The notes under the pieces: generated by a model
Told to the model about the DNA's origin: nothing
The model's input: only the letters and a program-made list of their open reading frames with translations
The model's database searches: none
Program-made: the position numbers and the translations under genes
In this document: positions 1 through 10,660 of the stretch, in pieces
Layout: each line of letters starts with the position of its first letter
Numbering within the stretch: the first letter of the stretch is position 1
Virus record (IMG/VR): IMGVR_UViG_2695420540_000012
Reading direction: 5' to 3' (one strand)
Length of the DNA: 10,660 bases
Source of the DNA: a virus
Lineage: Duplodnaviria; Heunggongvirae; Uroviricota; Caudoviricetes

Positions 1-31
1 TACACTAAATCAGTAAGTTGGCAGCATCACC
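1..31 (-). mobile_element. IS1 terminal fragment (insA-proximal inverted-repeat end); body of element lies upstream of the window
   Basis: Bases 1-31 (tacactaaatcagtaagttggcagcatcacc) are identical to the last 31 bp of the complete IS1 copy at 4513-4543. Confidence 0.85.
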
Positions 32-32
32 C

Positions 33-143
33 CGCCACAGAACAATTATTGCTTTTGCCGTTGATGACAATAAAGTTTTTATCGCAGGCGTATACCACGG
101 TGGGCAAATCTATGAAACCGATTTTTTATCCAGTGCACCGTAA
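33..143 (+). pseudogene. 3' fragment of a RelE/ParE-superfamily-like toxin gene, 5' end removed by IS1
   Basis: Open frame starts directly at the IS1 boundary with no start codon and encodes RHRTIIAFAVDDNKVFIAGVYHGGQIYETDFLSSAP then stop (taa 141-143). The hydrophobic strand, turn, strand pattern resembles toxin C-termini, including the intact toxin at 9400-9690 (ILYRVTASSIEVVNIVHSRRQY). Assignment is by pattern only. Confidence 0.3.
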
Positions 144-183
144 AACCCCCATCCTTCAGGGCGTGGCGGATATCAAACTTTGG

Positions 184-1266
184 TCATTTTCTCTGGCTGA
201 TCTTTACCGGATAACCATCCCGAAGATCAATTAAGTGCTCCGGTTCAGAAGCAAACCATGCATAAGATCCCCACGCCAATTCTGGTATTGCCTTTTTAAA
301 AGGCAGAGCACTTCTGTCCATAAATGCCGTAAGGAATGCAAGATTTTTCTCGCTGAACCCAGCGTCAATAGCCAAATGAGTGAGAGTAACTTTTCGTTCC
401 CTGTTTATAGGCCCATCTGTCGCAACTACTTCAGTGAAAACTACAAGCATGTCCGAACCCGTTCGGTCCTCTCCCAAATCAATCAAAATAATATCTGGAA
501 GTGCTTTTGAGGCATCAATATTCAGCCCCAATGCTTTTGCCAATACATCATCCTGAGCAACAACTTTATTCCCGGATTCAGACAACCAGAGCACAGTTGG
601 ATTCTTAAGAAAATTAGGAGCAAAAACTTCGATGACGGCCTTAGCTATTGTACTTGACGGGCCCGGAGCTAAAGTTCTCTTCTCTCCATTTGGGAAAGTG
701 ACGACTACGGCATCAGCAGCAATCACTGCCCCTGATTTCAATAAACGCAACCTAGCAAGAGCGGCTTTGTTCAAATGATTTTCTTGCCAGGAACTTATTG
801 CACTCAGCAGCGAATCTCCTTCAAGCCCGGCATCAAAGAGTGCTGCAAAAGAGCGATTCAAACTGTAACGAGGACGAGAGGATGTGGTGGGTATACCTTT
901 ACGCTCAACAATTGCATTGCAAGGTATTAGGCCATTTTTTATAGTTTCATCACGTATTGGCTCACGCGTATTTTCCGCATACCATGCATCAGCAGGCCTT
1001 ATCTTTTGTTTAGAGAAAGTCATCTTTACCCAGCTTTCTCTGGACGCATCATCAGTAAGAGCAGCCTGCGAATCTCCCATACTTACAACCTGGCTGGGCC
1101 TTATCCATCGCCCCAGCCCCTCAACCGCACCAGCATAAAACATGACAAAAATTGTTTTTGCAGCTATTTCCCGAATTAAATATCCACGATTCTCAGTCCC
1201 TTCAGGGAAAATTAATTGTAATCTTTCCCGGATAACATTCAATGGGGGAACAACAGGCAGATTCAT
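184..1266 (-). CDS. Putative Type II restriction endonuclease (360 aa), partner of the upstream methyltransferase; possibly BsuBI/PstI-like
   Basis: Its ATG overlaps the methyltransferase stop in an ATGA overlap at 1263-1266, the classic coupled M then R arrangement. Contains a PD...EVV segment (ALPDIILIDLG...MLVVFTEVVATDG) reminiscent of a PD-(D/E)xK core, but the canonical lysine is not where expected. Family assignment is recollection, not a search. Confidence 0.5.
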   Translation of the reverse strand: MNLPVVPPLNVIRERLQLIFPEGTENRGYLIREIAAKTIFVMFYAGAVEGLGRWIRPSQVVSMGDSQAALTDDASRESWVKMTFSKQKIRPADAWYAENTREPIRDETIKNGLIPCNAIVERKGIPTTSSRPRYSLNRSFAALFDAGLEGDSLLSAISSWQENHLNKAALARLRLLKSGAVIAADAVVVTFPNGEKRTLAPGPSSTIAKAVIEVFAPNFLKNPTVLWLSESGNKVVAQDDVLAKALGLNIDASKALPDIILIDLGEDRTGSDMLVVFTEVVATDGPINRERKVTLTHLAIDAGFSEKNLAFLTAFMDRSALPFKKAIPELAWGSYAWFASEPEHLIDLRDGYPVKISQRK

Positions 1267-3095
1267 GCAATCATCACTCCATAGAAACCAGCGATAGTTC
1301 TCTCAATAATCCGTCTGTGGACGCCAGCATCAATTAACGATTGAATCTCCATCACCTGCTCCAGAGAAGGCAACGGGATTGAATTCAATTCATAGGCCGA
1401 AACAGCAACACTTCCGCTTATACACCTGAACGCCCGATCGACAACATGCGAATTAAGTAGCATATCAATAACATCAGGGCGAACCGCAGAGAACAATCCG
1501 TTTGAATATACAATATTAATATGGTTTTCAACTACTACGCCACCAGTTTCATCTATAAATCCCTGAGGTAAAATTGCCGCTAAAATCCTTCTGTCCTGTT
1601 CCTTCGATGTTGTCCGCTGAACAAGCACACATTCAGATTTTGTCACAAGGAAACCCTGTTGTGGGGTTATATCGATATAGGGAACATGATTTTTTCTGTC
1701 TGCACTAAAACGAAAACCAGCTGAAGTTATTGATTCCGCCCAGACTAATGGGTAGCTATTTTTTCCTTTCGTCGTACGCAACTGCGACTTAAATCGATTC
1801 CAGACTAACTGACCTGTAGAGACTGAGTATCCCAGATCAGCTAAACGCGTAGACATCTGTTTTAATACATTAAGAAAACAGGCATCATCTTTAACGCGTG
1901 GCAAAAGCCACGTTGCTCCACCTTTTTCTATATCAACATTACCTATTTTCTCAATTTTTGCTTTGTTCAACCCCTTAGGGACAAGTGAGGATACCTGGGC
2001 CCGAACTTTATGTTCTCCCGCCTTGAATGCTGTCAACATTGTTTCCTGGAGAACATCGTCAAAGACCCCATCCCTGTCAGTGACGAAATCAAGGGCATAC
2101 GGAGTAGTTTTTTCGGTCAAAAGGGTTCGCAGCGCGGTGAAATACTGCCCACCAAGAAAAGAAGTTGGCGTAAGAAATGCAATAACTCCTGTTTTCTCTT
2201 TAACCATGCGAACAGCTAAGTCGGTGAACAATCCATATAGATTTGCATGACCAAATAACGAACGAGAATATTTTTCTCTCGTTTTAATATCGAGAGTGAC
2301 ACGTCCGTAAGGCGGATTCCCTACCACAAGATCATAACCAGAAAATTTATCTTGCTGAAGCGCATCAGCAACAATAATTGTATCTTCAGGCAATCTACGT
2401 TTTACCTTTACACATAGTGGCATTAGTACAGATTCGAGCAATACCAAACTCATCCAAGCCGCAAATGGATCGATTTCTATCCCCTTTAAACGACGACTGA
2501 TTCTCCTCAACATCCATTCAGGGGAAGACCCCTTGTCTTTTTTTAACATTCGAATGGCTACTGGTGCCAAAAATGCACCGCCACCACACGCAGGATCAAT
2601 AACCGATGCATGAGAAAAATCAACACCAGACTTTTCAGCCAGGTCCAAGAGACGCGCTACCAAAGGTGGGGGGGTATAGTAAGCCCCCAATTCCGAACGG
2701 TAAGCGGATGGCAGCATTACCGTATAAATTGACCCAATCAGATATCCAGCGTCCTCCGCCGGAAATTGAGCAATAAGCTCACCTGTTCGTTCAGCGAGCT
2801 CGCGTGCATCACATGGAATGTCTTCTATGTAAACAGTGTGCGGTACTGCCCTCATTTTAATGCTGCTTTTTTGCTTTTTTGCAAGGGTATCCCAATATGC
2901 AGCTACGATGCTGAAGCAGTATGAGCGGGCATGCATCAACCTTGACTGCCCGGTTTTGTAATTGCCCGCATAACCTTTGGCCATGGCTTTACAAGTTTGA
3001 TATCTTTCCAGATTAGAAAACTCATTATCTGTAAAAAAATCAAAATGTTGCACATTCATAATGTAAAATCCTAATGTATCAAACATGCGGGCCAT
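1263..3095 (-). CDS. N6-adenine DNA methyltransferase, gamma-class, Eco57I/N6_Mtase-like (610 aa)
   Basis: Motif X-like GAYYTPPPLV, motif I VIDPACGGGAFL, motif IV VVGNPPYG in gamma-class order, followed by about 340 aa of probable target-recognition domain. Start is ambiguous: ATG at 3095 has no Shine-Dalgarno, and in-frame ATGs lie at about 3083 and 3059. Confidence 0.85.
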   Translation of the reverse strand: MARMFDTLGFYIMNVQHFDFFTDNEFSNLERYQTCKAMAKGYAGNYKTGQSRLMHARSYCFSIVAAYWDTLAKKQKSSIKMRAVPHTVYIEDIPCDARELAERTGELIAQFPAEDAGYLIGSIYTVMLPSAYRSELGAYYTPPPLVARLLDLAEKSGVDFSHASVIDPACGGGAFLAPVAIRMLKKDKGSSPEWMLRRISRRLKGIEIDPFAAWMSLVLLESVLMPLCVKVKRRLPEDTIIVADALQQDKFSGYDLVVGNPPYGRVTLDIKTREKYSRSLFGHANLYGLFTDLAVRMVKEKTGVIAFLTPTSFLGGQYFTALRTLLTEKTTPYALDFVTDRDGVFDDVLQETMLTAFKAGEHKVRAQVSSLVPKGLNKAKIEKIGNVDIEKGGATWLLPRVKDDACFLNVLKQMSTRLADLGYSVSTGQLVWNRFKSQLRTTKGKNSYPLVWAESITSAGFRFSADRKNHVPYIDITPQQGFLVTKSECVLVQRTTSKEQDRRILAAILPQGFIDETGGVVVENHINIVYSNGLFSAVRPDVIDMLLNSHVVDRAFRCISGSVAVSAYELNSIPLPSLEQVMEIQSLIDAGVHRRIIERTIAGFYGVMIA

Positions 3096-3154
3096 AACAT
3101 CTCATGGTGGCGCATAGCAAACTGGCCCGAAGAATATCACGCACCAAGTCGATC

Positions 3155-3170
3155 TCATAACCCGTTATGA
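3155..3170. promoter_or_regulatory. Perfect 7-2-7 palindrome TCATAAC-CC-GTTATGA in the methyltransferase upstream region; candidate operator
   Basis: Exact inverted repeat about 60 bp upstream of the methyltransferase start. A 2-nt spacer is too tight for an RNA hairpin, so a dimeric protein binding site is more likely. Confidence 0.3.
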
Positions 3171-3309
3171 CAATAAATCTTTGTAGCTGAACTCACTTGG
3201 TGATTTGTCAATCATTCCTGGCCTCCAGTTCGTCCTGAATCTCTTTATCGAGTTCACCGTATTTGTTAGTCCTCATCACTCACGACTTGACTTCCAGAAA
3301 TAACCTTGA

Positions 3310-3666
3310 TTATTCGGGGCTATATTTTGTCACCCTGCGTATCCGCGCTTTCGCATTACGCTCAATCTGGATTAGCTTTTCTATATTTTTTCGCCTTTCC
3401 CGCTCCTCCTGGCGCAAGAGCCTTACATCATCTGCCAGTCTGGTTTCTCTTTTCGCCACAGAGAGCATCCAGTCAAATGGCTCCACAACTGCACCGCAAA
3501 TTTTACAGCGGACCTGACGCTCTTTTTCGTCAACCCGGACAGAAGCGTGATGGCAATATGGTCTTTCCGATGGCTCATAAAGAAAATTAACCTGATTACG
3601 AGGGTTATCCTCTTTTACCGGAAATAAAACAATATTGCTTAACTCATCTTCTGGTTTTATTTCCAT
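3310..3666 (-). CDS. Hypothetical small zinc-ribbon protein with basic coiled-coil-like C-terminus (118 aa)
   Basis: Strong Shine-Dalgarno (AAGGAGAGGAGC) directly upstream of the ATG at 3664-3666. Cys/His cluster C-HH...C-x2-C, then an Arg/Glu-rich tail (RLLRQEERERRKNIEKLIQIERNAKARIRR). No family recognised. Confidence 0.6.
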   Translation of the reverse strand: MEIKPEDELSNIVLFPVKEDNPRNQVNFLYEPSERPYCHHASVRVDEKERQVRCKICGAVVEPFDWMLSVAKRETRLADDVRLLRQEERERRKNIEKLIQIERNAKARIRRVTKYSPE

Positions 3667-3723
3667 GCTCCTCTCCTTTGATGCGAATGCCAGCGGTAAT
3701 TGAAGCCTGATAGCTAATTTCAC

Positions 3724-3766
3724 TCACAGTACCGCCTCCTGAAAATCACCCTGATAGAAACAGAAG
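3724..3766 (-). pseudogene. 3' remnant of a paralogue of the hypothetical gene at 4616-5146, cut off by Ns and IS1
   Basis: Minus-strand reading gives ...FYQGDFQEAVL then stop, matching the C-terminus ...AFYQGNFQKVLL of the 4616-5146 gene. Nucleotide similarity continues through the downstream intergenic region (3661-3760 versus 4575-4653). Confidence 0.45.
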
Positions 3767-3790
3767 NNNNNNNNNGGTAATGACTCCAAC

Positions 3791-4294
3791 TTATTGATAG
3801 TGTTTTATGTTCAGATAATGCCCGATGACTTTGTCATGCAGCTCCACCGATTTTGAGAACGACAGCGACTTCCGTCCCAGCCGTGCCAGGTGCTGCCTCA
3901 GATTCAGGTTATGCCGCTCAATTCGCTGCGTATATCGCTTGCTGATTACGTGCAGCTTTCCCTTCAGGCGGGATTCATACAGCGGCCAGCCATCCGTCAT
4001 CCATATCACCACGTCAAAGGGTGACAGCAGGCTCATAAGACGCCCCAGCGTCGCCATAGTGCGTTCACCGAATACGTGCGCAACAACCGTCTTCCGGAGA
4101 CTGTCATACGCGTAAAACAGCCAGCGCTGGCGCGATTTAGCCCCGACATAGCCCCACTGTTCGTCCATTTCCGCGCAGACGATGACGTCACTGCCCGGCT
4201 GTATGCGCGAGGTTACCGACTGCGGCCTGAGTTTTTTAAGTGACGTAAAATCGTGTTGAGGCCAACGCCCATAATGCGTGCAGTTGCCCGGCAT
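3791..4294 (-). CDS. insB: IS1 InsB frame (expressed as InsAB' transposase by -1 frameshift)
   Basis: 167-aa frame (...[42 protein letters not shown]...) overlapping the insA 3' end at the A6C site. Confidence 0.9.
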
Positions 4295-4488
4295 CCAACG
4301 CCATTCATGGCCATATCAATGATTTTCTGGTGCGTACCGGGTTGAGAAGCGGTGTAAGTGAACTGCAGTTGCCATGTTTTACGGCAGTGAGAGCAGAGAT
4401 AGCGCTGATGTCCGGCAGTGCTTTTGCCGTTACGCACCACCCCGTCAGTAGCTGAACAGGAGGGACAGCTGATAGAAACAGAAGCCAC
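4213..4488 (-). CDS. insA: IS1 InsA (transposition inhibitor, N-terminal part of the InsAB' transposase)
   Basis: 91 aa beginning [24 protein letters not shown], the canonical InsA zinc-finger/HTH protein, with a GTG start. Confidence 0.95.
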
Positions 4489-4615
4489 TGGAGCACCTCA
4501 AAAACACCATCATACACTAAATCAGTAAGTTGGCAGCATCACCACAGTGCTGAACTTAATTATTCAGATTTTGGATTATGCTTTCTCTTCACGAAGTTCC
4601 GATTGTTAATTTGGC

Positions 4616-5146
4616 TCACAACAGCACCTTCTGAAAATTACCCTGATAGAAAGCCAGTACACGCTGCATAGCTTCGCTCTTCCGGCACTCGCTACAGATT
4701 ATGTTTTGACGCCTGTCGTAGCGGCGTATTTCTCCGTCTGGTAATGACCAGATAAGGTCCGGATCAACCACAGATGGTTTCTTCAGCTTTGCCCTCGAGA
4801 GTTTTTTGCGGGCGTTTTGCCAGTCCTTACGAGCCTGTTCAGACGGGAATAACCCGTANNNNNNNNNNNNNNNNNNNNNNNNNNNNNNNNNNNNNNNNNN
4901 NNNNNNNNNNNNNNNNNNNNNNNNNNNNNNNNNNNNNNNNNNNNNNNNNNNNNNNNNNNNNNNNNNNCCAGAGTTGTATACATCGCCACTGGCAACCAGC
5001 TCTCTGGCGAGAACACTCATCAGATATCTTGTCGCACCTGTCTTGGCTTCCAGTTGCCGCAACGTCTCGCGACCGCTCAGACGTACAAGTTCAACAACCT
5101 GCCCCTTAATTTTTTCCCGCTCTTCCTGTGTAAATACTTTTGCCAT
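4616..5146 (-). CDS. Hypothetical prophage protein, middle masked by Ns (4859-4967)
   Basis: Frame is maintained across the N run. N-terminus MAKVFTQEEREKIKGQVVELVRLSGRETLRQLEAKTGATRYLMSVLARELV is helix-turn-helix-like; C-terminus contains CSECRKSE. Starts 15 nt after the stop of the upstream gene. Confidence 0.5.
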   Translation of the reverse strand: MAKVFTQEEREKIKGQVVELVRLSGRETLRQLEAKTGATRYLMSVLARELVASGDVYNSXXXXXXXXXXXXXXXXXXXXXXXXXXXXXXXXXXXXXYGLFPSEQARKDWQNARKKLSRAKLKKPSVVDPDLIWSLPDGEIRRYDRRQNIICSECRKSEAMQRVLAFYQGNFQKVLL

Positions 5147-5161
5147 AAGCGCCCCCGGCAA

Positions 5162-5887
5162 TCACTTTTCCGACACAATACGACCGGAGGAATCGACAAT
5201 CTGTCGAACAATATCCCGGTGCTTGTTCAGCTCCCGCAACGCGGCGCAGACACGCTCCCACTTCTGGACATGACTTTTCGCCCGACGCAGTTCGCGGTTT
5301 GCCATATGCAGCGATGGTAAAACCAGGTCATCCGCTTGCGTTTCGGTGAACGATGGCAACGACTGCACAATGTCCGCCACAGTTTCTGTTTTAATTTCTT
5401 CCTGTGTTGCAGCTTCCTGTACCGGTAACGCAACACCTGCTGGCTGAGGAAAGACTTTACCATCCGTTTCCGCTATGGATGCGGCTTTCGGCTCTGCCGG
5501 TAAATCAGCGCCCGGTATGCAGTACCGAAATTTACCGCCCTGATTCACGCGAATCAGACGCCCTTTGCTGATTGCCATGGCCAGCGATGAATTCGCCCGG
5601 CGGGAGGTAATCCCGAACATCAGTGCCAGCTCATCCGCCGTTTGTGGGCCATGTTGTTCAATCGCCTCAGTCAGCATTTGCGCTGTCACTTTCGGTACCG
5701 GTGACACTGGTTCACTTTCACCAGCCTGAATCAGCCACCACATCGAACCCTTGTTATCCGCTTCACCACGGCGCTTCAGTTTCCACAGTTCGTTGACCGC
5801 ATCTTCACGGCTGATTCCAAGGCGGGACGCCACCACATGTGAAGAGGCTCTTTTCAGTGCTTTCAGTGCGTCAAATACAGTTTCCAT
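5162..5887 (-). CDS. Hypothetical prophage protein with two winged-helix-like segments (241 aa from the GGAGG-supported ATG)
   Basis: GGAGG lies 8 nt upstream of the ATG at 5885-5887. Helix-turn-helix-like segments [27 protein letters not shown] and [29 protein letters not shown]. No family assigned. Confidence 0.5.
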
Positions 5888-5908
5888 TAAAACATCCTCC
5901 AACAAAAA

Positions 5909-6300
5909 TTACTTCACAACTCCCGGAAAGCTGACATTTGAACGCCAGCTATCCCAGTTAAACGTCACCCACCGACAACCGTTCATGGTCATGCGGTCCA
6001 TAATCCTCTCACCAAGAAGCGTGCTCATTGCGGCATGATTCAGGTTTGTTAACATCCCGACACTGCACAGTGATGCTGTCCGGCGATCAATTATCTGGTG
6101 CAATACCACCTGCTCGTTTTTCGTCTCCCGCTGAATGCCTATTTCATCCAGGACCAGCAAATCAACCCCGCAAAGCTCCTGTAAAAATTTTTCACCGGAT
6201 TTGCCGTTGTCGTAGCTGTCATGCAACACGCTCATGACATCAGACTCGGTGACGATAATCACGCTGCGCCCCTTCGCCATCAGCCGGTTACCCATCGCCG
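5909..6300 (-). CDS. DnaC-like helicase loader (IstB-like AAA+), C-terminal part only; N-terminal part hidden in Ns
   Basis: KGRSVIIVTESDVMS...LLVLDEIGIQRETKNEQVVLHQIIDRRTASLCSVGMLTNLNHAAMSTLLGERIMDRMTMNGCRWVTFNWDSWRS aligns closely with the E. coli DnaC / Rac YdaV C-terminal half as remembered, including Walker B (DEIG). Walker A would lie in the masked region. Confidence 0.85.
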
Positions 6301-6777
6301 NNNNNNNNNNNNNNNNNNNNNNNNNNNNNNNNNNNNNNNNNNNNNNNNNNNNNNNNNNNNNNNNNNNNNNNNNNNNNNNNNNNNNNNNNNNNNNNNNNNN
6401 NNNNNNNNNNNNNNNNNNNNNNNNNNNNNNNNNNNNNNNNNNNNNNNNNNNNNNNNNNNNNNNNNNNNNNNNNNNNNNNNNNNNNNNNNNNNNNNNNNNN
6501 NNNNNNNNNNNNNNNNNNNNNNNNNNNNNNNNNNNNNNNNNNNNNNNNNNNNNNNNNNNNNNNNNNNNNNNNNNNNNNNNNNNNNNNNNNNNNNNNNNNN
6601 NNNNNNNNNNNNNNNNNNNNNNNNNNNNNNNNNNNNNNNNNNNTCCACCGNNNNNNNNNNNNNNNNNNNNNNNNNNNNNNNNNNNNNNNNNNNNNNNNNN
6701 NNNNNNNNNNNNNNNNNNNNNNNNNNNNNNNNNNNNNNNNNNNNNNNNNNNNNNNNNNNNNNNNNNNNNNNNNNNNN

Positions 6778-7817
6778 TCGGTATCCGGTTCAGAAATATG
6801 ATTCACACAACGCTGGTTGTTCGTGCCGCTTACCGGGAGCAACCAGGGGTTTTCAAAATTCCGGTCCGGCCCAAAAAACGTCGTCGCTCGCTGAACAAAT
6901 TCCGTTCCCGCTTTCCCGGTCGCCGCCAGGTATCTCGCGTAACGCCTCACACCATCCAGCATGGTCTCTGGTGGCACCCCCTCGCGCAATCTGGCCTTCC
7001 AGGCACTGAATGCGGATTTCTTCGGGTTTGCCCCGGCACGCAACGGGTATTCCCGCCAGACCTGTTCGAACACATCCGGATAATCCACTCGTCCCACAGG
7101 CTGCCCGGTGTTTTCCGGGGCTACCCGATCGGCTTCCCGCTGAATGGCGGAATCGGCTTCAGGCTGCTGCAGTTGGAGTGATTGCTCCGGCCTTGCGGTC
7201 ATCACCTGCTGCACAGCGCCCGAATCGGCTTTCAGCGCATACGCTGAATCGGCTTCCGGTGTCGAGCCTGCTGGCTGACCAGGATTGACGGTCTGAACAT
7301 CCCCTGCCTGGTTCGTGGCGTTTTTTACGCCATGGACCATAGTGTTTTGATCTTCTTTATCTGTATCTTTATCTGTATCTGTCGTGACTCGTCGTGACAT
7401 GTGCGTGACATTTCGTGACGCGCCGTGACAATCGCCATTTTGTTCCCGCTTTCTTTCCCTCTCTCGCTGCGCCCTCTTGCGCTCTGCAGGAGATTTTGCG
7501 GTTTGCGAAATATTGCCGTTGTCCTCTTTAAGCACCTGGCGTTTTTCCCATCCAGTGATTAAATCACCATCAAGTACCCGCCCCTGCATCGTCTGCAAAA
7601 TTGAATCAATTACCTCTTCTGTCACGTCGAGCGCACTTGCCAAATCTTCTGTCGTGACATCAATGTGACCTCGCGTGACATTTCGTGACGCGCTCACCAG
7701 GAGGTGGATATACACTGCCATCACTGTTGCAATTGGCTGCCCTGACACCCTGGCAATTGTTCGCCACTTAGGGTCATTTGGCATGTCATGCCATAATCTG
7801 AGCCAGGCGTTAGCCAT
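6778..7817 (-). CDS. Putative phage replication initiator / replisome organiser (O-like), 3' end hidden in Ns
   Basis: Shine-Dalgarno GAGGTGA 4 nt upstream of the ATG at 7815-7817. Lies directly upstream of the DnaC-like gene and contains two iteron clusters, as lambda O contains ori. The six-frame track runs this frame through the N block to 6288, but the true stop is not visible. Confidence 0.6.
7356..7379. repeat. Tandem 12-bp direct repeat (tttatctgtatc x2) next to iteron cluster A
   Basis: Exact tandem duplication at 7356-7367 and 7368-7379, followed immediately by the first CGTGAC iteron. Confidence 0.7.
7383..7429. repeat. Iteron cluster A: five CGTGAC copies at 10-11 bp phasing (candidate ori)
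   Basis: CGTGAC at 7383, 7393, 7404, 7414 and 7424. Includes the first copy of a 21-bp exact direct repeat GCGTGACATTTCGTGACGCGC (7403-7423). Confidence 0.65.
7653..7693. repeat. Iteron cluster B: four (C/T)GTGAC copies at 10-11 bp phasing (candidate ori)
   Basis: CGTGAC/TGTGAC at 7653, 7664, 7674 and 7684, plus an inverted GTCACG at 7621. Includes the second copy of the 21-bp repeat (7673-7693). Confidence 0.65.
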
Positions 7818-7888
7818 ACTCACCTCTTCTGATACCGAATCTTTTTACTCACGAGTTGCCGGGAGCGATTCGATATGGCTATTGTCAG

Positions 7889-8314
7889 TCAATGTACTGC
7901 CACAGCATTTCCTGCCGGGCCACCACGGTTCATCTGATTGAAACCGGCGATTGCCACTGCGACAAAATCATCAGCGTCTCTCACCAGTCGTTCATGCGTC
8001 TCCACCAGTTCCCGAAAATAAGCTGAACTGTGGCTGCGCATTCGAGCCACCAGCGGAGGTGGCATTGCCCTTTCGATCGCAGGTAACAACGCCTGAATTT
8101 TTTCAACAGCGTCAGGGGTGTCTTTATCCAGCCAACGGAAAATCTTTTGGGTGTTGAGATAAAGCGTGTTGTGCTTGCTGTCGTTATGCAGAACCGGAAA
8201 CGTCATTCCCAGTTCGAAATAAACCCTGGTTATTTCAGCTGCCGGAACTTTTTCACCGTCCGGATGCGCCCAGGCTTTCATCGCCATGCGGATGTGTTCA
8301 TGCTTGATTTTCAT
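7889..8314 (-). CDS. CII-like / YdaT-family prophage regulator (141 aa)
   Basis: N-terminus MKIKHEHI matches what I recall of Rac YdaT. Its ATG overlaps the stop of the upstream Cro-like gene in an ATGA overlap at 8311-8314, and it sits between the Cro-like and initiator genes as in Rac (ydaS-ydaT-ydaU-ydaV). Confidence 0.55.
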   Translation of the reverse strand: MKIKHEHIRMAMKAWAHPDGEKVPAAEITRVYFELGMTFPVLHNDSKHNTLYLNTQKIFRWLDKDTPDAVEKIQALLPAIERAMPPPLVARMRSHSSAYFRELVETHERLVRDADDFVAVAIAGFNQMNRGGPAGNAVAVH

Positions 8315-8574
8315 GAATCAACCCCCGCCGATGGTTGTGTGTTAGCCTGAAACTCAGCAGGCAAGCCGTCAGTTGGGTTGGGGTAGGTTTTACTGTCAAT
8401 CTCATGTGGGGTCACCACCCATCCCGTTGCTTCACACCAACGTAATATTTTTTCTCCTGTAAGTTTTGCACGCCCCGTTATAACGTGGCTGACCATCCCT
8501 TGGGATGCGCCAACAATCTCAGCAAATGAACTCTGGGTTATATGAAAATGATGCAAATATTCTCCAAGATTCAT
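8311..8574 (-). CDS. Cro-like HTH regulator (YdaS/Cro family), 87 aa from the ATG at 8572-8574
   Basis: Helix-turn-helix ITQSSFAEIVGASQGMVSHVITGRAKLTGEKI. Transcribed divergently from the repressor across the operator region. The track's longer ORF begins at a TTG (8601); the ATG has a GGGCGG purine patch upstream. Confidence 0.7.
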   Translation of the reverse strand: MNLGEYLHHFHITQSSFAEIVGASQGMVSHVITGRAKLTGEKILRWCEATGWVVTPHEIDSKTYPNPTDGLPAEFQANTQPSAGVDS

Positions 8575-8610
8575 AATCCGCCCTATGTGATGTGTTACCA
8601 ATGCATAATT

Positions 8611-8650
8611 AATAGCACTGTTATTTTTAAAAGTAAATAGTGATGCTATT
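8611..8650. promoter_or_regulatory. OR-like operator pair with divergent promoters
   Basis: Two 15-bp imperfect palindromes, AATAGCACTGTTATT (8611-8625) and AATAGTGATGCTATT (8636-8650), consensus AATAGC-N3-GCTATT. On the minus strand TTTACT (-35-like) and TATTAAT (-10-like) overlap them. Confidence 0.6.
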
Positions 8651-8685
8651 TCAAAGTGATTAGCAATCTTATTAGAATTGGATGT

Positions 8686-9186
8686 ATGAAAAGAAAATCA
8701 TTGTCAGACACCGACCTCAACGCCGCCAGAAGACTGAAAGAAATCTGGATGGCAAAGAAATCTCAGTTGGGATTGACTCAGGAACGTGCGGCGGAAATTA
8801 TGGGGTTTTCAACACAAGGGGCGGTAAGTCACTACCTAAATGGTCAAACCCCACTAAACCTTGAGGCTGTTCTAAAGTTTGCTGGCTTACTGAAAGTTCC
8901 CCCTGAGTCAATCAGGCCAGACATGGTAGATTTGCTGCAAATTGCAAGGATGTATTGTCGAGAACCACAGCAAGATAACATAGTCGCATTACCAGCAGAC
9001 ACAGAACAAACAGAGGATGAACTACCGTTTGCCGTAGAGCCGATGGAACGAGATTTAATCCATACGTTCAGAGCTTTTCCGAAAGAAGATCAAGAACACA
9101 TGCTTCAGGAGATGAAAGATAAAAAAGAATCAATGGATCGTACGGTTGCGCGGTGGTTAGCTGCACAAAAAGGCCGTCGCGCCTAA
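8686..9186 (+). CDS. Prophage repressor, XRE/CI-type HTH (RacR/CI analogue); start could instead be GTG at 8656
   Basis: Helix-turn-helix LGLTQERAAEIMGFSTQGAVSHYLNGQ. Sits divergent to the Cro-like gene. No LexA/S24-type G-x-S-M ... K peptidase motif is visible in the C-terminal half. Confidence 0.7.
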   Translation: MKRKSLSDTDLNAARRLKEIWMAKKSQLGLTQERAAEIMGFSTQGAVSHYLNGQTPLNLEAVLKFAGLLKVPPESIRPDMVDLLQIARMYCREPQQDNIVALPADTEQTEDELPFAVEPMERDLIHTFRAFPKEDQEHMLQEMKDKKESMDRTVARWLAAQKGRRA

Positions 9187-9205
9187 ATCAGAGGAGATAT
9201 GTAAA

Positions 9206-9400
9206 ATGAGTACAGTCCTTTCCCCAATGGTTTCAGAATTTGAGACAGTTGAGCAAGAAAATAGTTACAACGAATGGCTGCGGGCCAAAGTAGCAGCAAG
9301 CCTCGCGGATCCCCGCCCGGCGATTCCGCATGATGAGGTAATGGCGGAAATGGAACAAATTATTGCCCAAATTGCTGCTGCAACTCACAGAGGTGAATAA
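9206..9400 (+). CDS. Putative type II antitoxin (ParD-type partner of the ParE/RelE toxin), 64 aa
   Basis: Shine-Dalgarno GAGGAG 9 nt upstream. Small acidic protein whose TAA stop overlaps the toxin ATG (TAATG at 9398-9402). Family assignment is by context and general resemblance only. Confidence 0.55.
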   Translation: MSTVLSPMVSEFETVEQENSYNEWLRAKVAASLADPRPAIPHDEVMAEMEQIIAQIAAATHRGE

Positions 9401-9690
9401 TGTTACCCGTTTTATGGCTACCATCTGCTCGTGATGATTTGCGCCAGATCGTAGCCTACATAGCTAAAGAAAATCCCGCGGCAGCACGCAGAATGAAAAT
9501 TCGAATTGAAACATCCGTTTTGCCGCTCACAGAGCATCCTTACCTGTATCCTCCAAGCGAGCGAGTTCTTGGTCTTCGTGAAATTGTAACTCATCCTAAC
9601 TACATCATCCTTTACCGAGTAACAGCATCAAGCATAGAAGTAGTAAATATTGTGCATTCTCGAAGACAGTATCCAGGCAAAAACAGTTAA
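9400..9690 (+). CDS. ParE/RelE-family type II toxin (96 aa)
   Basis: Family-typical pattern: N-terminal DDLRQIVAYIAKENPAAARRM and C-terminal LREIVTHPNYIILYRVTASSIEVVNIVHSRRQY. Translationally coupled to the upstream antitoxin. Confidence 0.75.
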   Translation: MLPVLWLPSARDDLRQIVAYIAKENPAAARRMKIRIETSVLPLTEHPYLYPPSERVLGLREIVTHPNYIILYRVTASSIEVVNIVHSRRQYPGKNS

Positions 9691-9706
9691 TTATTCCCGC
9701 CGACAG

Positions 9707-9728
9707 AACCACCTTAGGGTGGTTTTTT
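9707..9728 (+). terminator. Rho-independent terminator after the repressor/antitoxin/toxin genes
   Basis: Stem AACCACC / GGTGGTT with loop TTAG, followed by a six-T run. Confidence 0.6.
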
Positions 9729-9746
9729 CTTGCCCCAACAAAAAAC

Positions 9747-9787
9747 AATAGCGATGCTATTTACATCAAAAAAATAATGATGCTATT
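9747..9787. promoter_or_regulatory. OL-like operator pair with a rightward promoter
   Basis: AATAGCGATGCTATT (9747-9761, perfect 6-3-6 palindrome) and AATAATGATGCTATT (9773-9787), same consensus as the 8611-8650 pair. TTTACA (9760-9765) and TATTGT (9784-9789) with an 18-bp spacer overlap them. Confidence 0.55.
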
Positions 9788-9968
9788 GTTTCAGGCGTCA
9801 ACCCACCCCGCCCCACAGAATGCAGGGCAATACTTCGAGTTACCAGACAGTGGTCAGGGGTTAAGTAGCCAGCCCGAGGCGTAAGAACATGACGGCAGGG
9901 TTCAATCTTTAACTATGCAGCAGGTTTTTTGTTCCGCCACCCCGGCGTTAAGGGGAAATGAGGTCAGC

Positions 9969-10121
9969 ATGGATACTATCGATCTTGGCAACAACGAATC
10001 TCTGGTGTGCGGCGTGTTCCCTAACCAGGATGGAACGTTTACCGCCATGACGTATACCAAAAGCAAAACGTTTAAAACCGAATCTGGCGCGCGTTGCTGG
10101 TTAGCCAGAAACACTGACTGA
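9969..10121 (+). CDS. Small prophage early protein (50 aa), Rac YdaG/YdaF-like
   Basis: GAGG 7 nt upstream of the ATG. MDTIDLGNNESLVCGVFPNQDGTFTAMTYTKSKTFK resembles what I recall of the small Rac proteins next to racR. Confidence 0.5.
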   Translation: MDTIDLGNNESLVCGVFPNQDGTFTAMTYTKSKTFKTESGARCWLARNTD

Positions 10122-10132
10122 TGAGGCTGACG

Positions 10133-10498
10133 ATGGAATTTAAAGATTTACCGTCTGATGTACAGAAAACAGCAGCTCATACATTGCATTCTGTGCTGCG
10201 AGAAATCGGGAAAGATATTGCAAGCGAGCCAGCAAAAGATCTGGCCCGGAAAATCAAGACCGCTTTCGTTGAGCTTTATAATGTTGGCACTGACTCTGAA
10301 ACTGTCGAGACCAAGACCGTAAGTTCACCAATATTCTCACTTGAGCCAAGCGTATTATCAGGTGAAATATGCACCGAGATTTCCAGCGAACTGCTTCCGG
10401 TAATACGAGAAGCAATTCGCCGTCGCGGTTTGGATGGAAGTTATGATCATGACGTTCTGCAAGTTCTCAGGACAATGGTGACTTCACTGGGGATTTGA
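10133..10498 (+). CDS. Hypothetical prophage protein (121 aa from MEFKDL)
   Basis: GAGG 7 nt upstream of the ATG at 10133. Acidic, no recognisable motifs. An alternative ATG at 10121 overlaps the upstream stop. Confidence 0.45.
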   Translation: MEFKDLPSDVQKTAAHTLHSVLREIGKDIASEPAKDLARKIKTAFVELYNVGTDSETVETKTVSSPIFSLEPSVLSGEICTEISSELLPVIREAIRRRGLDGSYDHDVLQVLRTMVTSLGI

Positions 10499-10630
10499 TC
10501 CCTGCGTCCTCTAAGCTTTTGATATAGCGGTCCTCCAAGAAGCGGTAAATTTTGTCGAAATCATCTTTTCCCTCTGGTTTATTCAGAGGATTACAGGACC
10601 CGTAAGTAGCGGCATACATTTCAACCGTTT

Positions 10631-10660
10631 GGTAATGACTCCAACTTATTGATAGTGTTT
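10631..10660 (-). mobile_element. IS1 start (insB-proximal inverted-repeat end), same orientation as the other two copies; element continues beyond the window
   Basis: Bases 10631-10660 are identical to 3776-3805 (ggtaatgactccaacttattgatagtgttt). Confidence 0.85.

Follow-up and report, generated by a model that had tools for sequence, protein, structure and literature searches.

The 10,660-nt stretch analysed here (hereafter the window) is the whole of contig CXCZ01000138.1 (GCA_001249915.1), runs of N included, a short-read scaffold from a draft Shigella sonnei assembly in which three copies of the insertion sequence (IS) IS1 lie in the same orientation. The window is a decayed lambdoid (lambda-like) prophage remnant of S. 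sonnei, located at the Qin-type site between ydfI and ynfE/F. Our overall reading, which we hold with a probability of about 0.8, is that one outer IS1 copy of this remnant came by insertion and the other marks a deletion scar, and that the central copy lies outside the conserved architecture of the locus. What the locus records is ordinary IS-driven genome decay, not a new mobile element, and the biology is already known.

Positions 1-3760 and 6778-10660 are 100% identical to complete S. sonnei genomes (loci L006, L008, and L018), both outer IS1 junctions included, and the same locus was retrieved from many complete S. sonnei genomes with the proteins of the window. Its chromosomal neighbours are dcp, ydfG, rspR (ydfH), ydfZ, and ydfI on the left, and ynfE/F, ynfG, ynfH, dmsD, clcB and onward on the right. 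The gene order is that of a lambdoid early region and is collinear with two intact prophages, L001 (E. coli FDAARGOS_943) and L009, in which the restriction-modification genes lead on, without IS1, to parDE, DUF968, rusA, Q, and the lysis, terminase, and portal genes. For the fetched loci, all IS1 copies were tabulated together with their flanks. One example of the canonical locus is CP061367.1 at 3,243,802-3,253,370. The comparison set for the central copy comprised 29 other S. sonnei loci, and 21 loci include the left outer copy; further relatives cited below are L017 (E. coli B7A), L019 (S. sonnei CP060117.1), and L034 (CWVT01000151.1).

The three same-orientation IS1 sequences reported by an earlier reading made from the letters of the window only (the sequence-only reading) are real, the two window ends repeating the ends of 3776-4543 exactly. 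Across the S. sonnei genomes examined, two direct outer IS1 copies bracket a remnant of ~9.6 kb. In the window they are present as stubs of 31 and 30 nt, the contig ending inside IS1 on both sides; in complete S. sonnei genomes (21 loci) they are full-length (768 bp), in direct orientation and with the same junctions. We refer to the left outer copy as IS1-L, to the right outer copy as IS1-R, and to the next IS1 to the right of IS1-R as R2. The outer features of the window are as follows.

1-31, minus strand: last 31 nt of IS1-L, with its left terminal repeat (IRL) end; 100% identical to 4513-4543 (repeat family D7)
10622-10630, no strand: left copy of the 9-bp target-site duplication of IS1-R, CAACCGTTT
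10631-10660, minus strand: first 30 nt of IS1-R, with its right terminal repeat (IRR) end; 100% identical to 3776-3805 (repeat family D1)

IS1-R arose by an independent simple insertion, that is, by ordinary transposition. Its left flank is invariably CAACCGTTT, and the conclusion follows from the presence of CAACCGTTT on both sides, as a perfect 9-bp duplication, in ten loci (L008, L011, L012, L015, L019, L028, L029, L031, L032, and L033), together with an empty site, single-copy ACATTTCAACCGTTTTATCAA, in two IS-free relatives (L017 and L021).

IS1-L is a deletion scar that joins the region upstream of ydfI to the middle of parE. Its flanks are mismatched in 21 of 21 loci, with no 9-bp duplication, and they are not adjacent in IS-free relatives. 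The left flank, TGTTATATG, lies 48 nt upstream of ydfI and in E. coli continues into ydfJ (E. coli E2865); the right (inner) flank, CCGCCACAG at 32-40, lies inside the prophage parE gene. Furthermore, the sequence upstream of the intact parE in L001 differs from the left flank of IS1-L. Along with ydfJ and the late genes, the deletion took out parD and about half of parE (its 5' part). It may have arisen by IS1-IS1 recombination or by intramolecular transposition of IS1, and the end product fits both.

Just outside the window, a series of IS1-associated deletions or recombinations between direct IS1 copies has direct comparative support. R2 lies 1.2 kb to the right of IS1-R, in a Rha-family gene, and is flanked by a 9-bp duplication, TTTCCGGTT, in L019 and L032; its empty site is present in L017 and L021. 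Alongside the two duplicated copies of L019 and L032 stands the single hybrid copy of L006, L018, and L026, which has CAACCGTTT on its left and TTTCCGGTT on its right, the interval from IS1-R to R2 being gone. In five loci the right flank of R2 is CGACCCGTG, and eight loci have a hybrid copy between CAACCGTTT and CGACCCGTG; in L018 and L019, the CGACCCGTG site lies within a ynfE/F gene that is intact and free of IS. More than once, and with different outcomes among isolates, deletion or recombination between direct IS1 copies has shortened the DNA that lies beyond the right end of the window; the order of these events we infer.

The flanks quoted in the sequence-only reading (CCGCCACAG at 32-40, ACAGTGCTG at 4544-4552, and CAACCGTTT at 10622-10630) are all correct. 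The argument built on them, that their mismatch points to recombination between IS1 copies, is invalid: the three flanks belong to three different copies, and since a target-site duplication flanks either one IS or a whole compound unit, a mismatch among them is uninformative under any model. IS1-IS1 recombination and IS1-associated deletion at the locus are nevertheless borne out by the hybrid copies to the right of the window and by the IS1-L scar; IS1-R is a simple insertion. The check proposed at the time, recovery of the full outer copies with their flanks, gave a matching duplication for IS1-R (10 loci) and none for IS1-L (21 loci). A matching 9-bp duplication had been named beforehand as the observation that would speak against recombination, and IS1-R has one.

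The central IS1 is of another kind. The features around it are as follows.

3724-3760, minus strand: canonical S. sonnei DUF977 gene, its final 11 codons and stop; all relatives cease to be collinear at 3760
3751-3766, plus strand: 16-nt string identical to the IS1 interior (4469-4484); 2 matches in the window against 0 expected by chance
3767-3775, no strand: 9-N scaffold gap whose true length is not fixed; the Ns are in the public record and other N runs are mis-sized
3776-4543, minus strand: complete central IS1, 768 bp; IRR 3776-3798, IRL 4521-4543
4544-5087, minus strand: segment of another lambdoid DUF977 allele, similar to that of E. coli JB2; 72 nt of intergenic sequence, then a gene designated DUF977' at 4616-5146

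By its length, terminal repeats, and insA/insB' frameshift arrangement, 3776-4543 is a member of IS1. The terminal repeats are 23 bp long and imperfect (18/23 matching). The genes lie on the minus strand (insA 4213-4488, insB' 3791-4294), with an A6C motif for -1 frameshifting at 4231-4237, and the encoded domains are recognised by Pfam as InsA (PF03811 and PF12759) and DDE_Tnp_IS1 (PF03400). The copy is 99.5-100% identical to annotated IS1A/IS1B copies.

No IS1 was found at this position in any of the other S. sonnei loci (29/29), where the gene for a 118-aa protein and DUF977 are contiguous. Relative to these canonical loci, the scaffold holds 892 extra nt (6 + 9 N + 768 + 57 + 52), the 52 nt repeating the DUF977 3' end at 81% identity; a simple IS1 insertion would add 777 nt. 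As to a target-site duplication, the central copy has an N gap on its left and flanks that are not collinear. On the left, no continuation of DUF977 past 3760-3761 of the kind seen in the scaffold was found among 1,952 matching E. coli records (20,395 searched), and the six bases that follow, CAGAAG at 3761-3766, are foreign to DUF977. The natural DUF977 3' end and the start of the IS1 insA coding region have a 10-nt string, CTGATAGAAA, in common; the scaffold extends this match by 6 nt, to 16 nt of identity with the IS1 interior. The junction could be the endpoint of a microhomology-mediated deletion or an assembly error. The edge to the left of the gap also lacks the IS1-end stub of ~30 nt that is found at both true IS1-adjacent contig ends.

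On the right, the scaffold alternates between two alleles, and DUF977' is interrupted by a run of 109 N (4859-4967). Differences from JB2 and from canonical S. sonnei are distributed as follows.

4544-4715: 1 to JB2; 17 to canonical S. sonnei, counted over 4601-4715
4716-4858: 4 to JB2; 0 to canonical S. sonnei
4859-4967: gap in both comparisons
4968-5087: 0 to JB2; 16 to canonical S. sonnei
5105 onward: many to JB2; 0 to canonical S. sonnei

The protein rebuilt from DUF977' is absent from ~15 billion proteins, whereas contigs with the canonical allele number at least 1,000. Among 5,426 complete E. coli genomes none has the right junction of the central copy (GCATCACC directly followed by ACAGTGCTG), and exact-pattern scans of viral and metagenome contigs did not recover it either; a scan of viral contigs for the left junction was likewise negative; partial products specific to the junctions occur solely in CXCZ01000138.1. 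A paralogous S. sonnei donor locus for 4544-5087 was not found by homologue search or by cluster look-ups with the rebuilt DUF977' allele. The exact JB2 allele is on record on 27 contigs, and no listed name is S. sonnei.

The N runs bear on how these junctions are read. The nine bases to the left of the central IS1, taken as masked in the sequence-only reading, are an assembly gap already present in the source scaffold. Compared with relatives, the 109-N run (4859-4967) corresponds to 1 nt, the 343-N run to ~269 nt, and the 127-N run to ~110 nt; the possibility that N runs are one-to-one masks was ruled out by the length mismatch of all three runs that could be sized. The 109-N run replaces a single base of every relative, canonical and JB2-like alike, and no 36-codon insertion exists beneath it in the 13 DUF977 homologues read, in all of which (13/13, those of 152-178 aa included) VYNSGYG (or MYNSGYG) is contiguous. 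Gene calls for CXCZ01000138.1 in the public collection break exactly at the N runs. Given that the runs are mis-sized and stand in the public record, they are scaffold gaps, and 3767-3775 is not a hidden 9-bp duplication. The sister draft L034 has similarly mis-sized gaps in the same replication genes. In L018 (6272-7064, window ~6300-7180), the IstB-like and replisome-organizer genes correspond to a region gapped in two independent S. sonnei drafts; the shared gaps suggest near-identical paralogues of the replication genes elsewhere in the genome.

We consider a false or unresolved scaffold join the most likely origin of the central IS1, with a private rearrangement of this isolate as the less likely one. 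Under the former, a collapsed IS1 repeat contig, together with flanking sequence from a paralogous DUF977 region, would have been joined through read pairs to the contig that halts at 3760 (contig A) by greedy scaffolding. This reading is drawn from the mis-sized gaps, the IS1-interior bases at the left edge, the switching of alleles at a gap, and the uniqueness of both DUF977' and the junction. A pipeline of Velvet, SSPACE, and GapFiller was used for 299 S. sonnei assemblies, and its authors call such tools greedy and prone to false joins (PMC5320598); we infer that the CXCZ01000138.1 assembly came from it. Several points weigh against a false join. The assembly accessions of CXCZ01000138.1 were not found in the supplements of the pipeline paper (PMC5320598). 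Contig A halts at 3760 rather than entering canonical DUF977, a break which suggests a real event in this isolate. A canonical genome without an extra paralogue could not provide the JB2-like stretches, and as the names listed for the JB2 allele exclude S. sonnei, the donor must be isolate-specific. The join was judged from assembled sequence, and comparison loci were fetched via proteins within the segment, so that isolates lacking the whole segment are invisible.

Alternatively, the central copy may be genuine, a possibility that we take seriously but regard as doubtful. Another lambdoid prophage with an IS1 beside a JB2-like DUF977 would have replaced the canonical DUF977 region through IS1-IS1 homologous recombination and a second crossover near 5088-5104, leaving three direct IS1 copies and two IS1-bounded segments, in line with the sequence-only reading. 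The derivation of the central flanks from two different DUF977 alleles, the true break of contig A at 3760, and the documented IS1-IS1 recombination at the same locus all favour such an exchange, and in Shigella, IS1 is the IS with the greatest abundance and variability (PMC7373316). On the other hand, the copy is a singleton, absent from the 29 other S. sonnei loci and from all searchable collections; at its left junction, the bases ahead of the gap are those of the IS1 interior, not of an IS1 end; the allele switches fall at scaffold gaps; and the rebuilt gene product is found nowhere else. A plain new insertion into the canonical locus, with its 9-bp duplication under the Ns, is very improbable: it would fit the activity of IS1 in S. 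sonnei and a gap of exactly 9 N, but the extra DNA amounts to 892 nt rather than 777, the 52-nt DUF977 3' end stands on both sides at just 81% identity, the right flank is a different allele with different intergenic sequence, and the 6 nt to the left of the gap are non-canonical. The excess length (892 nt) and the lack of collinearity between the flanks exclude a simple insertion under either surviving reading. Compound transposition fares no better. In Tn9, direct IS1 copies bracket the cargo, and by analogy one or both segments might be compound transposons that arrived, or could leave, as units; this we rate as the least probable reading of all. The direct copies do bracket cargo as in Tn9, and both outer copies are intact in relatives. 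Nevertheless, the unit bounded by IS1-L and IS1-R has different outer flanks (TGTTATATG vs CAACCGTTT), IS1-R carries a duplication of its own, the cargo is resident prophage DNA collinear with intact IS-free prophages, and all places shown belong to a single genomic context (ydfI to ynfE/F, or IS-free prophages). The restriction-modification genes had no match in plasmid or phage records, matches there being restricted to the hypothetical gene at ~3275-3729. Bracketing by two IS1 copies is true of the scaffold as written; the outer stubs are complete in relatives, and the placement of the central copy is unreliable. The two composite-transposon-like segments of the sequence-only reading therefore rest on a central IS1 that sits beside a scaffold gap and is missing from the 29 other loci, and for its proposal that each could move as a compound element there is neither a duplication around the whole unit nor another genomic context, and the cargo has no copy among plasmids or phages. 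The idea that the segments arrived as compound transposons was largely contradicted on the same grounds of unit duplication and second context. There is no evidence of compound transposition, and the Tn9-like look fails the defining tests.

If the central IS1 were genuine, an intact 3.7-kb PstI-family module would lie between two complete direct IS1 copies as a Tn9-like compound element, which we regard as improbable. Its cargo would then be a selfish restriction-modification system, and the element, a product of exchange between two prophages through IS1, could transpose or be looped out.

Apart from the IS1 copies, the remnant has the following gene content.

33-143, plus strand: 3' remnant of a ParE-family toxin gene, 36 codons and stop, severed by IS1-L; collinear with the end of the intact parE (L001 8801-9112)
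184-1266, minus strand: BsuBI/PstI-family type II restriction endonuclease, 360 aa, intact (Pfam PF06616, PF17728)
1263-3095, minus strand: N6-adenine DNA methyltransferase, 610 aa, partner of the endonuclease (Pfam PF07669 Eco57I, PF02384 N6_Mtase)
3310-3666, minus strand: hypothetical prophage protein, 118 aa; an open reading frame present in all relatives, with only a sub-threshold zinc-ribbon match
5162-5887, minus strand: DUF1627 prophage protein, 241 aa; exact protein in the canonical S. sonnei locus
5909-6655 (upper coordinate approximate), minus strand: IstB/DnaC-like ATPase (replication helper); PF01695 and PF00308 on the 248-aa orthologue
6753-7817 (lower coordinate approximate), minus strand: phage replisome-organizer, by the RefSeq name of the orthologue
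7889-8314, minus strand: YdaT-family protein, 141 aa; PF06254 on an identical orthologue
8311-8574, minus strand: Cro-like helix-turn-helix (HTH) regulator, 87 aa; weak HTH_3 match, opposite the repressor gene
8686-9186, plus strand: CI-like HTH repressor, 166 aa (PF01381 HTH_3)
9206-9690, plus strand: PaaA2 antitoxin (9206-9400) and ParE toxin (9400-9690) pair (PF21217, PF05016)
9969-10498, plus strand: DUF1391 protein (9969-10121) and 125-aa hypothetical protein (10121-10498)

The 36-aa parE stub gave no Pfam match, and Rfam found no RNA families in the window. The RefSeq name of the methyltransferase is 'HsdM family class I SAM-dependent methyltransferase'. Assembly gaps cut into both replication genes: the 5' part of the IstB/DnaC-like ATPase gene is lost in the 343-N gap (6301-6643), and the 3' end of the replisome-organizer gene falls in the 127-N gap (6651-6777). 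Within the latter gene, two types of direct repeat, GAATCGGCTTC and CGTGACAT (repeat families D5 and D6), occur at 7128-7259, 7391-7429, and 7651-7689; by analogy with those inside lambda O-type genes, they may be candidate origin iterons. For the DUF1627 protein, genome contigs yielded one real relative, in E. albertii (63% identity); a 29% match in a SAR86 metagenome bin is spurious. Around the regulatory genes, a partly palindromic AATAGTGATGCTATT-like motif (repeat family D3) occurs three times, once between the cro-like and cI-like genes (8629-8651) and twice just 3' of the PaaA2-ParE pair (9740-9762 and 9766-9788). These motifs look like candidate operator sites flanking the immunity region.

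The exact endonuclease protein occurs in 4,192 blocks of the public collection, and the places shown are all S. sonnei-type loci or intact prophages. The PstI-family pair at 184-3095 is rare, being found in two genomes (H1 and H2) among the matches listed for 5,426 complete E. coli genomes; in H1 the cassette sits inside an IS-free prophage. The pair is present in most of the S. sonnei genomes examined, and in intact prophages it lies between the replication genes and parDE. In L019 it is partly deleted: an IS-free 2.8-kb deletion (L019 5492/5493) runs from the methyltransferase interior to the DUF1627 interior, joining window position 2674 to 5522 at a G run and leaving the endonuclease gene without an intact methylase. 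An IS91-family element (Y2 transposase) lies within the YdaT gene of the same prophage remnant in one draft isolate (L023 6531-7730). In L022 (9247-10505, window 9892-10625), the DUF1391 and 125-aa genes stand directly 3' of Mu-like tail and tail-fibre-assembly genes, a position which implies movement of this small module among unrelated phage backbones.

Many complete genomes carry the annotated locus, and the significance of these observations is little beyond housekeeping. Were the central copy real, it would add a single isolate-specific IS1 rearrangement to the hundreds of this species. The window nevertheless offers a worked example of IS1 insertion followed by IS1-IS1 deletion eroding a Shigella prophage, with the insertion, empty-site, and hybrid-flank states all available in public genomes. 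It is a warning as well: runs of N in draft scaffolds should not be taken for masks, and structure should not be inferred where a short-read scaffold contains a complete multi-copy IS.

Among known systems, Tn9/Tn1681-type transposons resemble the scaffold in their IS1-bracketed cargo and, for Tn9, in direct orientation. The locus differs in having no 9-bp unit duplication, no second location, and resident prophage DNA as its cargo; moreover, of the bracketing copies, one carries a duplication of its own and another is in doubt. Repeat-induced false joins of the SSPACE/GapFiller kind (Page et al. 2016, PMC5320598) share with it a full multi-copy IS in a scaffold that ends ~30 nt into the same IS, a one-sided N gap, mis-sized N runs, and allele switching across gaps. 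The likeness is limited, in that such a join is no more than likely for this assembly and does not by itself explain the break at 3760. In Shigella, the expansion of IS1, differences in IS content from one isolate to the next, and the loss of genes through IS activity have all been well documented (Hawkey et al. 2020, PMC7373316). The locus matches this decay in its multiple identical direct IS1 copies, in one copy whose flanks lie far apart in IS-free relatives, and in isolates that have lost the stretch between two IS1 copies and keep one copy with hybrid flanks; nothing essential sets it apart, and what is added here is the detail of one locus, a prophage between ydfI and ynfE/F. Finally, the Qin/Rac prophages of E. 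coli K-12 share the neighbours ydfG, rspR (ydfH in K-12), ydfZ, ydfI, and ydfJ on one side and ynfE-ynfH, dmsD, and clcB on the other, as well as the module order YdaT, cro, cI, and DUF1391, with dicB further on. Unlike them, the S. sonnei remnant has the PstI-family restriction-modification and PaaA2-ParE pairs, and its late region was lost by IS1-associated deletion.

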